Both the position numbers and the translations under genes were made by a program. From a virus, in UHGV virus genome UHGV-0042147: 13,465 nucleotides of DNA. The stretch is one strand, 5' to 3'. How positions within the stretch are numbered: the stretch's first letter is position 1; each line of letters begins with the position of its first letter. Below the pieces are notes generated by a model, which worked only from the letters and a program-made list of their open reading frames with translations, ran no database searches and was not told where the DNA came from. This document shows, piece by piece, positions 2,745-13,465 of this stretch.

Positions 2745-2906
2745 ATGACAAAACGTCGTAAGAAATACCAGGAAAAAGAAGAGATTCGACACCCTGATTC
2801 ACCTGAGGGATTAGTGGTAGCCGCAGCAAATAACAGGGCGTTCGCAGAGCGCCTTGTTGGTGTTTACAGACTAGCCAAAGCAGGAGTGAAACATGGGCGT
2901 CGTTAA
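2745..2906 (+). CDS. Small basic hypothetical protein (53 aa) between cII and O
   Basis: ATG at 2745 with GGAG 5 nt upstream (2736-2739). 53 codons, lysine/arginine-rich N-terminus. The 3' end overlaps the O start by 14 nt. No recognisable family. Confidence 0.35.
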   Translation: MTKRRKKYQEKEEIRHPDSPEGLVVAAANNRAFAERLVGVYRLAKAGVKHGRR

Positions 2907-3811
2907 GTTAGCTGATTACAGGCCTCAACTGGAGGTCGTGGAGCATCGCGTGGCAGAACTCGAAGATGGCTACACTCGGACTGCAAACACACTGTTAGAA
3001 GCCGCCATGCTTTCTGGACTTACTCTACATCAGTTACTGATTGTTATGGCTGTGTGGCGCAAGACATACGGTTACAACAAAAAAATAGATTGGATCGGAA
3101 ACGAACAGTTCGCTGAACTCACTGGCATGGCACCAACCAAATGCTCTACCGCCAAAAACGAGCTTATCAGAATGGGAGTTCTCATTCAGGTGGGGCGTCA
3201 AGTTGGTATGAATACAAACATTTCCGAGTGGAAAACGAAAGTTAACGGATTCGGTAAAACATTTACCAATTCGGTAAAACAAACCTTCACCAAATCGGTA
3301 AAAAGCAATTTACCGAATCAGTCAAACACAAAAGACAATATACAAAAGACAATAAATACAAATACCCCCTTACCCCCCCCCCCNNNNNNNNNNNNNNNNN
3401 NNNNNNNNNNNNNNNNNNNNNNNNNNNNNNNNNNNNNNNNNNNNNNNNNNNNNNNNNNNNNNNNNNNNNNNNNNNNNNNNNNNNNNNNNNNNNNNNNNNN
3501 NNCGCAAGGCAGAACGAATCGACTATGAATCCTTCCTGAACGCCTACAACACCGAAGTCGGTGACAGACTGCCACACGCTGTTGCGGTCAACGAGAAACG
3601 CAAACGTCGCCTGAAGAAAATCATTCCGCAACTGAAAACGCCAAACGTGGACGGTTTCAGAGCGTATGTCAGGGCGTTTGTGCATCAGGCCAAGCCGTTT
3701 TACTTCGGAGACAACGACACTGGCTGGACGGCAGATTTTGATTACCTGCTGAGGGAAGATTCGTTAACGGGAGTACGGGAAGGGAAGTTTGCAGACAGGG
3801 GGATTGCATGA
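2893..3811 (+). CDS. O: Replication initiator O-like protein (iteron-binding N-terminal domain, P22 gene 18-like C-terminal domain), interrupted by an N run
   Basis: N-terminal part (2893-3383) matches the lambda O N-domain pattern (LEDGY.R..N.LLEA...L...Q..I..A..RKTYG.NK..D.I...Q..E.TG......[10 protein letters not shown]). The ori iterons lie inside it. After the N run a 102-codon frame (3503-3811: [39 protein letters not shown]...) ends with TGA 3809-3811, overlapping the helicase ATG at 3808. Frame across the gap cannot be verified. Confidence 0.8.
3249..3318. repeat. Replication origin iterons inside the O gene
   Basis: Direct repeats ATTCGGTAAAAC at 3249-3260 and 3269-3280, a degenerate copy AATCGGTAAAAAG at 3293-3305, and an inverted copy TTTACCGAAT at 3309-3318, at about 20-24 bp spacing. 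Followed by an A/T-rich segment with a 13-bp direct repeat ACAAAAGACAATA (3328-3340, 3342-3354). Same layout as lambda ori. Confidence 0.75.
3384..3502. other. Run of 119 N (unresolved sequence, probable assembly gap) after an 11-C homopolymer
   Basis: N characters at 3384-3502, directly after the C run at 3373-3383. Confidence 0.99.
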
Positions 3812-5264: not shown

Positions 5265-5463
5265 GTTAATTTTCTCTGCATTGAGGATTCTCGGTGCTAT
5301 GTGGATGGTGGCGACGTTCATTGTTGTTGCCAGCAGTTTTGTCCGGTTGGTAGGCGAAGGTAAAGACCTGGTGGGTGTGCTTTTCGGTAGCATTTTCCTG
5401 TGGGTGATTATCGGTGTTATGCCTGTTGTCGTAGCAAAAGTGGCGTGGCGTTTTGTGAGTTGA
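5257..5463 (+). CDS. Small membrane protein (68 aa, two predicted transmembrane helices)
   Basis: GTG start 5257, 7 nt after GGAGG (5245-5249), overlapping the stop of the 27-aa ORF. Two hydrophobic segments (ILGAMWMVATFIVVASSFV and VLFGSIFLWVIIGVMPVVVA). Stop 5461-5463 sits just before the ninB RBS. Confidence 0.45.
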   Translation: MAELIFSALRILGAMWMVATFIVVASSFVRLVGEGKDLVGVLFGSIFLWVIIGVMPVVVAKVAWRFVS

Positions 5464-10462: not shown

Positions 10463-10896
10463 GCAGAGTCACCGCGATTATTTCCGCTCTGGTTATCTGC
10501 ATCATCGTCTGCCTGTCATGGGCTGTTAATCATTACCGTGATAACGCCATCGCCTACAAAGAGCAGCGCGACAAAGCCGCATCCATCATCGCTGACATGC
10601 AGAAGCGTCAACGTGATATAGCAGAACTAGACGCCAGATACACAAAGGAGCTTGCTGATGCTAACGCGACTATCGAAAGTCTCCGTGCTGATGTTTCTGC
10701 TGGGCGTAAGCGCCTGCAAGTCGCCGCCACCTGTGCAAAGTCAACGACCGGAGCCAGCAGCATGGGCGATGGAGAAAGCCCAAGACTTACAGCAGATGCT
10801 GAACTCAATTATTACCGTCTACGAAGCGGAATCGACAGGATAACCGCGCAGGTTAACTACCTGCAGGAGTACATCAGGACTCAGTGCCTGAAATAA
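10459..10896 (+). CDS. Rz: Spanin inner-membrane subunit Rz (i-spanin)
   Basis: 145 aa. N-terminal transmembrane helix ([18 protein letters not shown]), then a coiled-coil-like region. N-terminus matches lambda Rz; middle and C-terminus diverge. ATGA overlap with R. Confidence 0.85.
10658..10843 (+). CDS. Rz1: Spanin outer-membrane lipoprotein Rz1 (o-spanin), embedded in Rz in the +1 frame
   Basis: ATG 10658 with AAGGAG 7 nt upstream (10645-10650). 61 aa with a signal peptide ending in a lipobox-like VSAC, followed by a proline-rich stretch ([12 protein letters not shown]). Lies entirely within Rz. Confidence 0.7.
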
Positions 10897-10928
10897 TTTT
10901 TTTGCAAATCACAAAGTCTATTTAATGA

Positions 10929-10951
10929 GCCTCGCGATGCGGGGCTTTTTT
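10929..10951 (+). terminator. Intrinsic terminator downstream of the lysis cassette
   Basis: 7-bp stem including one G-U pair (GCCTCGC 10929-10935 / GCGGGGC 10939-10945), 3-nt loop, followed by TTTTTT (10946-10951). Confidence 0.6.
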
Positions 10952-11100
10952 ACATCTGAATTTCACAGCGCATCTCACGCGCATATTACATCACCCGAGC
11001 CTTTCAGAAAGTTGAGCCTGAGAACTGCCGTATATGGTGGCGACCATCTCGGGGCGGCTTTTCTGTGAGACAGGCTCACTTTCTAAAAGGTAAAGACGCT

Positions 11101-11619
11101 ATGAATCATCAATTGGCTAATCTCGATTTCCGGGACATGGTGGTTGTTTCTGGTGATCGCGTGATCACAACCTCCCGCAAGGTAGCAGCTTACTTCGACA
11201 AGCAGCATCACCACATCATTCAGAAAATCGAAAAGCTAGACTGTTCGGATGAATTTCTAACCAGCAACTTTTCGCGGGTTACCTATGAACACAAGGGTAA
11301 TCAGTATGTTGAATATGAAATTTCCAAAGACGGTGCGATGTACATCATCATGTCGTTTACCGGCAAAAAAGCTGCCGCCATCAAAGAGGCGTTTATCAAA
11401 GCATTTAATTGGATGCGTGACAGGCTGATGGAGATGGCTCACTCATACCAAAGAGAGCACAACGAGTTAATGCTGGAGTTCATGAAGGAAAAGGATGTTG
11501 CCAGTATGTCAGGACGCTTGCTGAACCGCTGGGGCAGGATCAAAAAACCGCAACTCATAGCAAGAATCAAAAGGCTTGAGCAGCAGGCGCAAATATCGAT
11601 CCCCGGACTGCCAAAGTGA
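11101..11619 (+). CDS. rha: Rha-family phage regulatory protein
   Basis: Probable start ATG 11101 (MNHQLANL...). Rha N-domain pattern VVVSGDRVITTSRKVAAYFDKQHHHIIQKIEKL. Positioned after the lysis genes, as rha is in P22-like phages. The ORF track's 11065 start is an upstream in-frame alternative. Confidence 0.8.
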   Translation: MNHQLANLDFRDMVVVSGDRVITTSRKVAAYFDKQHHHIIQKIEKLDCSDEFLTSNFSRVTYEHKGNQYVEYEISKDGAMYIIMSFTGKKAAAIKEAFIKAFNWMRDRLMEMAHSYQREHNELMLEFMKEKDVASMSGRLLNRWGRIKKPQLIARIKRLEQQAQISIPGLPK

Positions 11620-11971
11620 CCATTCCAAAGCCCATCTACGGGTGGGCTTGATAATGAAACCGTGATTTACATCCCCACAATCCGGGTATGTAAAAGATAG
11701 TTCAGGCGAGAACAGATTTAACTAAATCTGTGCACCACCAGTTACGGCAGTACCACGAAGCAACCCAAGCCAGTAAGTGGGGAAATAACACTGGCAGCCA
11801 CTGAAAGATGAACCTCCAGCCTTATGGCAAAAAAGATTCTTTGTGGTGGCGGACTGATGGAAAGACATCGGTTATTGCAGAGGCCATTCAATGAGTGGTC
11901 TCGACAATGGCTTATACCCTGCACGGGATAACTTAACTGATATCCCTTTTAACGGATAAACGGAGCCAACA

Positions 11972-12214
11972 ATGGCAGAGATTATTCCCATGACTGAAGA
12001 ACAGAAATTCCAGCTAGAGATTTACAAACTGGTCATGAACCAGAACGCAGCAGCAGAGGAAGCATTTCAGTTCATTGGTACTGACGAGCTGAAGCTTGAG
12101 CTATTCAAAATTCACTTCCAGTCAGGCGGCGCTAATTCGGATATCACGACCCGCACTATCGAAGCGGTGCGTAAATCGAAGGAAGCGTTAGACCTGTTCA
12201 CTACCGGAGCATAA
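11972..12214 (+). CDS. Hypothetical protein (80 aa) upstream of terminase
   Basis: ATG 11972 with GGAG at 11961-11964. Acidic, helical-looking product. No family recognised. Confidence 0.5.
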   Translation: MAEIIPMTEEQKFQLEIYKLVMNQNAAAEEAFQFIGTDELKLELFKIHFQSGGANSDITTRTIEAVRKSKEALDLFTTGA

Positions 12215-12293
12215 ACATGGCAACTCAAGGTTTCGACAACCCATCCAAATTCCGCGATGAATGGGATAAGCAAGCAGAAGGGAAATAATCAAT

Positions 12294-12719
12294 ATGGCGA
12301 CTGAGAAAAAGAACGTCGGTCGCCCTTCGGATTACCTGCCGGAGGTGGCTGATGATATCTGTGCGCTGCTTGCCTCCGGGGAAAGTCTGGTTAAGGTTTG
12401 CAAGCGCCCCGGCATGCCAGCAAAGGCTACTGTATTTCGCTGGCTGTCAGAGCATGACGAATTTAGAGACAAGTACGCGAAGGCAACTGAGGCACGAGCT
12501 GATTCTATTTTCGAAGAGATATTCGAAATTGCTGACAATGCGATTCCAGATGCTGCTGAGGTGGCAAAGGCAAGACTTCGCGTTGATACCCGCAAATGGG
12601 CGCTGGCCCGAATGAATCCACGTAAGTATGGCGACAAGGTAACTAATGAGCTTGTCGGCAAAGACGGCGGCGCAATCCAGATTGAAACATCACCGATGAG
12701 CACTCTATTCGGAAAATGA
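12294..12719 (+). CDS. Terminase small subunit (TerS)
   Basis: 141 aa. N-terminal [26 protein letters not shown]...TVFRWL is the HTH pattern of a common phage small-terminase family. ATGA overlap with the large subunit. Not lambda Nu1. Confidence 0.8.
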
Positions 12720-13438
12720 CCTCGATTAATCCTATCTTTGAACCGTTCATTGAGGCGCATCGCTACAAAGTCGCCAAAGGCGGTCGAGGTAGCGGTAAAT
12801 CATGGGCAATTGCGAGGCTGCTTGTTGAAGCGGCGCGTCGGCAGCCGGTGCGCATCCTCTGTGCTCGTGAACTGCAAAACAGTATCAGTGATTCGGTAAT
12901 CCGGCTGCTTGAAGATACCATCGAGCGTGAAGGGTATTCAGCTGAGTTTGAAATTCAGCGTTCAATGATTCGTCATCTCGGAACGAATGCTGAATTCATG
13001 TTCTACGGCATCAAAAACAACCCGACGAAGATTAAATCGCTCGAAGGTATTGATATCTGCTGGGTGGAAGAAGCGGAAGCGGTAACGAAGGAATCATGGG
13101 ATATCCTGATCCCAACCATCCGCAAGCCATTTTCCGAAATATGGGTGAGCTTCAACCCGAAAAACATCCTCGACGATACCTATCAGCGATTCGTAGTAAA
13201 CCCTCCCGATGATATTTGTCTGCTGACGGTGAACTACACCGACAACCCGCACTTTCCTGAAGTTCTCCGTCTGGAGATGGAAGAGTGTAAACGCAGAAAC
13301 CCGACACTGTATCGTCACATCTGGCTTGGTGAGCCAGTAAGCGCAAGTGATATGGCAATCATCAAACGTGAATGGCTTGAAGCTGCAACTGATGCGCACA
13401 AGCAACTCGGATGGAAAGCGAAGGGTGCGGTTGTTTGA
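12716..13438 (+). CDS. Terminase large subunit, ATPase domain only (240 aa; truncated, split or frameshifted)
   Basis: Walker [10 protein letters not shown], Walker B/catalytic Glu in ICWVEEAEA, coupling motif SFNP. The ORF stops at 13436-13438 after about 240 aa with no nuclease domain. The window ends 27 nt later. Confidence 0.8.
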
Positions 13439-13465
13439 AGTGGTCAACAAAAACTGGCCACCGAG

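Follow-up and report, generated by a model that had tools for sequence, protein, structure and literature searches.

The stretch of DNA considered here (13,465 nucleotides, the window from here on) raises a simple question: why does the large terminase gene at its 3′ end, terL, stop after 240 codons and within sight of the last base? From first base to last, the window corresponds to contig GG771904.1 (13465 bp) in the draft assembly GCA_000164255.1 (Escherichia coli MS 182-1). An earlier note on the same DNA had offered four possible causes: a frameshifting or nonsense mutation, programmed frameshifting, a terminase that is split by nature, or an error in the sequencing. The analysis presented here leads to another answer: very probably, an insertion sequence of the IS911/ISEc52 type interrupts terL directly after codon 240, in an Sf6/P22-like prophage that E. 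coli MS 182-1 carries.

The truncated large terminase

The ORF occupies positions 12716..13438 of the plus strand, starts with ATG and codes for 240 aa in the ORF listing of the window; its stop codon, TGA, lies at 13436-13438, and 27 nt separate it from the window end. The 240 codons (12716..13435) take in the ATPase domain, the segment between the two domains and the beginning of what has been crystallised elsewhere as a nuclease-domain construct. A motif scan of the translation places the Walker A motif GGRGSGKS at residues 22-29 (12779..12802, plus strand) and a Walker B-like motif, ICWVEE, at residues 114-119 (13055..13072, plus strand), and the Pfam family Terminase_3 (PF04466) matches residues 15-206 (E = 5.8e-42). 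Over residues 1-240, the protein is identical at 239 of 240 positions to gp2 of Shigella phage Sf6 (PDB 4IDH, 4IFE; Terminase_3, or in NCBI terms “PBSX family phage terminase large subunit”), with an E-value of 3e-163 and with both Walker motifs in common, despite a DNA identity of about 93%. The full-length relatives have 470 aa (Sf6 gp2) and 471 aa (E. coli WP4-S18-ESBL-08).

The Terminase_3 match, the identity with Sf6 gp2 and the length of the relatives identify this ORF as a truncated large terminase and not as a chance ORF. The ORF listing, the motif scan, the Pfam match and the comparison with Sf6 gp2 also bear out what the earlier note had described, a terL ORF that has both Walker motifs, is about 240 aa long and ends just after the ATPase domain. 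As to the two domains that characterise the family, the N-terminal ASCE ATPase domain with its Walker A and Walker B motifs is present in the window TerL, and the RNase H-like nuclease domain with its metal-binding residues is absent from the ORF. The window terL is a truncated allele (a pseudogene) of the Sf6/P22-type family and not a functional member of it. In the databases, the protein has the accession EFK04478.1 and the title “phage terminase large subunit [Escherichia coli MS 182-1]”. It belongs to a cluster of 231 proteins, the listed ones being mostly partial; decayed alleles of the Sf6-type terminase are common in the databases.

The point at which terL homology ends

The position of the break was located with a query of 1266 nt (window 12200-13465), which was compared with 5426 complete E. 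coli genomes and about 50,000 phage records. There were matches in 847 E. coli and 42 phage records and, in all the matches listed, the alignment ends at query positions 1235-1237, that is, at window 13434-13436, the query being 29-31 nt longer. Direct alignment shows that the window has the sequence ...GGTGCGGTTGTTT in common with Sf6 and with an intact E. coli terL. After it, the intact genes read CTGCACATGACCCG (S-A-H-D...), or more fully CTGCACATGACCCGTCAGAT (Ser241-Ala-His-Asp244...), and the window reads GAAGTGGTCAAC..., more fully GAAGTGGTCAACAAAAACTGGCCACCGAG, exactly as the end of ISEc52 does. The uninterrupted gene across the site is GTTGTTTCTGCACAT, with the codons ...GTT GTT TCT GCA CAT GAC..., and it has TCT (Ser241) where the window has, at 13436-13438, the stop codon.

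The breakpoint between terL and the insertion sequence is located at 13435/13436, and a single base, T13436, is all that the two sequences share at the junction. The interruption is a clean breakpoint, neither a base substitution nor a small indel. A 70-nt query spanning the junction found no place at which at least 80% of it was covered in the 5426 complete E. coli genomes; the matches to it included copies labelled IS911. Since the junction is absent from these genomes, it appears to be specific to this strain.

The end of an insertion sequence

The 30 nt that follow the break (13436..13465) are identical, at 30 of 30 positions, to the first 30 nt of the 36-bp right inverted repeat (IRR) of IS911, TGAAGTGGTCAACAAAAACTGGCCACCGAGTTAGAG, as published (PMC2909936, Table 1). 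Over the 30 nt available, the sequence is thus a terminal inverted repeat that starts with 5′-TG, like the IRR of IS911. A reference copy of ISEc52 from E. coli D4 (locus L001), 1250 bp long, begins with these 30 nt as well, and over this length IS911 and ISEc52 are indistinguishable.

IS911 is a member of the IS3 family that was characterised by the group of M. Chandler, and ISEc52 is a close relative; in both, the transposase frames orfA and orfB are joined by a programmed -1 frameshift and the element measures about 1250 bp. The reference copy of ISEc52 has imperfect inverted repeats, TGAAGTGG...CCACTTCA, in which 26 of the first 40 positions match. Its orfA (HTH_Tnp_1, 100 aa) and its orfB (rve integrase core) run antisense to the sequence of the window tail, and an AAAAAAG run can be seen by eye where the two transposase frames overlap; RefSeq flags the transposase CDS as “frameshifted”. 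In the window, the repeat lies on the minus strand and the transposase genes would follow on the same strand, past the window end. Likewise, the left end of the element and any target duplication fall outside the contig, and what the window holds of the insertion sequence is its terminal 30 nt.

The 35-nt tail of the window (13431-13465) has matches at 5386 places, spread over 2695 of the 5426 complete E. coli genomes and numbering as many as 24 in one genome; all 15 of the tail matches listed lie at IS3-family or “ISEc52 family” transposase genes, one of them labelled “integrase core domain-containing protein”. The window thus ends in the IRR of an IS911/ISEc52-type element, and the transposase of this element would be antisense to terL. 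The last 27 nt, which the earlier note had considered uninformative, are on the contrary, together with the stop codon, diagnostic IS911 IRR sequence.

The reference copy has a history of its own. It lies (L001 2036-4814, E. coli D4, NZ_CP010143.1) between a 5′-truncated cas7 and a 3′-truncated cas3 of a type I-E CRISPR-Cas system, where an IS-associated deletion removed the genes between the two, and it has no 3-bp target duplication, being flanked by gtt and by cat. The same cas7/ISEc52/cas3 junction recurs in several strains (H62-H64, H66 and H70). In two other E. coli genomes (H71, NZ_CP041919.1; H74, NZ_CP074019.1), the matches to the IS end overlap genes that are annotated as ISEc52 transposase and as P22-type major capsid protein, which hints that the element has landed repeatedly in the morphogenesis genes of P22-like prophages.

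The end of the contig

The proximity of the stop codon to the end of the window can be understood in the same terms. An independent assembly product, a contig of 2945 bp in the Logan reassembly of run SRR088914, shows 100% identity with window 10521-13465 and stops at the very same base; it may derive from the same reads as GG771904.1, and the two do not amount to independent sequencing evidence. Both contigs reach exactly 30 nt into the insertion sequence, which is k-1 for k = 31. A de Bruijn assembler with k = 31 would leave 30 nt at the point where a unique path enters a multi-copy repeat. The end of the contig fits an assembly break of this kind and, from the way such assemblers behave, it also argues that the reads held no competing path with an uninterrupted terL. 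The stop codon and the end of the contig share one cause, the insertion sequence, and therefore the fact that the window ends 27 nt past the stop is no coincidence.

Taken together, these observations lead to the following proposal. An IS911/ISEc52-type element very probably inserted in terL with its IRR towards the 5′ part of the gene, so that its transposase would be antisense; the first three bases of the element (TGA, the start of 5′-TGAAGTGG... in the alignment of Sf6, the intact E. coli terL and the ISEc52 copy) fall in frame and end the ORF; and the draft contig breaks off 30 nt into the element, as assemblies do at a multi-copy repeat. The insertion sequence itself would be full length and multi-copy in MS 182-1. 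The insertion is suggested to be recent, because the genes upstream look undecayed and 239 of the 240 residues of TerL are identical to those of Sf6 gp2. The disabling of a prophage gene by an insertion sequence is an ordinary event, prophage morphogenesis genes often being disrupted in this way, and both components, the terminase and the element, are textbook entities.

Other explanations of the stop

The causes contemplated by the earlier note can be considered together, since the same sequence bears on them all. A mutation (nonsense or frameshift), programmed frameshifting, or a terminase split by nature, its nuclease being a separate subunit, would each account for the short ORF, and the short ORF is all that speaks for them; the probability left to this group of explanations is negligible. 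What follows the stop is the IRR of IS911, with terL in no frame, and terL homology gives way at 13435/13436 to an exact terminal repeat of the IS911 type. Homologues with the same natural stop and a separately encoded nuclease, which would have favoured a split gene, are not what the comparison returned: the homologues continue in frame to 470-471 aa. The occurrence of the junction in none of the 5426 complete E. coli genomes likewise argues against a conserved gene architecture.

An assembly artefact, in which a chimeric contig end falsely joins terL to the end of an insertion sequence while the real gene is intact, deserves slightly more consideration and is still quite improbable. It is true that this is a draft assembly, with a scaffold gap of 119 N at 3384-3502, and that the junction sits right where the contig ends. 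On the other hand, the junction and the end point are identical in the products of two assemblers, even if these possibly worked on the same reads, and the break coincides exactly with the outermost base of the insertion sequence, as it must in a genuine product of transposition. Since terL and the IS end have only T13436 in common, there is no repeat that could have caused a false join; moreover, if an intact path had coexisted with the interrupted one, a de Bruijn contig would be expected to stop at the fork and not 30 nt inside the element. The notion of a sequencing error gives way, with the others, to that of an insertion at codon 240.

The same scaffold gap explains what looked like a second lesion. 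It lies inside the O-type replication gene, preceded by a homopolymer of 11 C, and the gene calls are deposited as two, 2893-3383 and 3503-3811, as if the gene were split. In the intact homologue of E. coli AF14 (locus L008), the frame reads through and 32 nt take the place of the gap; a frameshift in the replication gene was thus rejected, the apparent split being caused by the gap and not by a mutation. Because of this gap, the window is to be regarded as draft sequence of scaffold quality.

The fate of the 3′ half of terL

IS3-family elements produce a short target-site duplication (3-4 bp) at both sides. A simple insertion predicts that another contig of the assembly carries ...CCACTTCA (the IRL end), then GTT, and then terL from codon 241 onward (TCTGCACATGACCCG; GTTTCTGCACATGACCCGTCAGATACAGG; TCTGCACATGAC...), the predicted target duplicate being the GTT at 13433-13435. 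In that arrangement, a TAA within the end of the element would be a stop in the frame of terL, so any 3′ terL ORF would need an internal start codon, and Met272 was judged the likeliest start for a gene caller downstream of such a break. No 3′ terL fragment of MS 182-1 was identified in a search of protein collections with residues 241-471 of the intact E. coli TerL, which took in the members of six clusters and was far from exhaustive.

One candidate for the 3′ half, P0058, starts precisely at Met272 and was rejected: it comes from ERR3970673 and SRR33527064, which hold a differently deleted prophage. There (L006 3690-4729 and L007 483-1522), another wreck of terL consists of a 94-aa Terminase_3 fragment followed by a 242-aa C-terminal fragment, which starts at Met272 and has a frameshifted tail. 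According to the gene calls, this wreck adjoins genes of the early region (cIII, kil), which suggests a large internal deletion.

The insertion sequence in MS 182-1 could also mark a larger rearrangement, in which an IS-mediated deletion or inversion took or moved the rest of terL (its 3′ half), perhaps together with the head and tail genes, so that what is left is the remnant of a prophage that ends at the insertion sequence. Within the insertion-sequence explanation, this is a possibility to be held tentatively, with a minority share of the probability. In its favour are the reference copy of ISEc52 between truncated cas7 and cas3, without a 3-bp duplication, where the same element is associated with a deletion elsewhere, and the outcome of the search for a 3′ fragment from MS 182-1, limited as it was. 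Nothing in the window bears on it, and the apparently undecayed genes upstream, which suggest recency, do not separate an insertion from a deletion.

The prophage around the interrupted gene

Directly upstream of terL lies the gene of the small terminase subunit, TerS (12294..12719, plus strand; Sf6 gp1 type, 141 aa; Pfam PF20901 Sf6_terminase, E = 1.3e-44). It appears intact and overlaps the start of terL by 4 nt (ATGA), and in Sf6, too, terL comes right after a small terminase gene of this type with an overlap of 4 nt. The portal gene, which follows terL in Sf6 and in intact E. coli prophages, would have its position past the end of the contig.

Apart from terL, the window has the look of an undecayed early and late-left arm of a lambdoid/P22-like prophage. 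Its content includes BstA, a cI-type repressor, Cro, cII, an O-type replication gene, a DnaB-type helicase, NinB, Dam, NinE/F, ANT, RusA, NinH, the Q antiterminator, holin, endolysin, an Rz-like gene, Rha, DUF2560 and TerS. The order of the arm is BstA, cI, cro, cII, O, DnaB-type helicase, nin genes, Q, lysis genes, Rha, TerS and terL. In this respect the window resembles other IS-disrupted or decaying P22-like prophages of E. coli and Shigella, that is, an otherwise complete-looking arm with a single insertion sequence in a morphogenesis gene; it differs from them in a junction that none of the 5426 genomes has. The O-type replication gene also contains, at 3257-3303 (and 3324-3362), repeats of about 24 nt in tandem (AAACATTCACCAAATCGGTAAAAC), with an A-rich stretch after them; iterons and an A-rich stretch within the O-type gene are the usual arrangement of a lambdoid ori.

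At the opposite end of the window, on the minus strand and adjoining the gene of the cI-type repressor, is a gene for a 301-aa abortive-infection defence protein, BstA (307-1212; PADLOC BstA, E = 1.3e-105). This ORF has no Pfam match. The same DNA is annotated in other strains as “BstA C-terminal domain-containing protein” (RefSeq). The disabled prophage apparently still has an intact anti-phage gene.

Consequences for the terminase and the prophage

The active site of the Sf6 gp2 nuclease is formed by D244, D296 and D444, together with N441 and K428, and the nuclease-domain construct that was crystallised comprises residues 213-470 (PMC4678813). The truncated TerL keeps the whole ATPase domain and 28 residues of this construct. 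All five catalytic residues lie past residue 240, the first of them (D244) four codons after the break; Sf6 gp2 continues to residue 470 with its C-terminal, RNase H-like nuclease, while the window ORF ends before D244 is reached. The product retains the complete packaging ATPase domain and lacks the RNase H-like catalytic residues and the rest of the C-terminal domain.

A headful-packaging terminase without its nuclease makes neither the initiating cut nor the headful cuts. The truncated TerL would be unable to cut concatemers, and no DNA-filled virions would be formed; as the whole active site of the nuclease is missing from TerL, the MS 182-1 prophage is very likely unable to package DNA. 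A defective prophage, one of the outcomes that the earlier note had in mind, is in this way the likely one, given the loss of the nuclease residues and the loss of packaging that it implies; the point mutation that was to have caused it gives place to the IS end at 13436.

A more active role for the fragment can be imagined. TerL(1-240), if the late operon still gives rise to it along with the intact TerS, might be dominant-negative and poison the packaging motors of superinfecting Sf6/P22-like phages; if this were true, the poisoned motors would be a packaging-level defence of the host provided by a disabled prophage, beside its abortive-infection gene BstA. Such a role is very improbable: the one point in its favour is the intact reading frame, and a recent, neutral hit by an insertion sequence explains the data fully.

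The insertion at codon 240, to return to it, has a practical side. Since the final 30 nt of the window accounted here for the stop codon and the contig end alike, genome scans that encounter an ORF stopping just before the end of a draft contig should check for the terminus of a repeat element first. The entry EFK04478.1, annotated as a large terminase subunit, is in fact an IS-interrupted pseudogene fragment of one, and the prophage of E. coli MS 182-1 is to be scored as probably packaging-defective.
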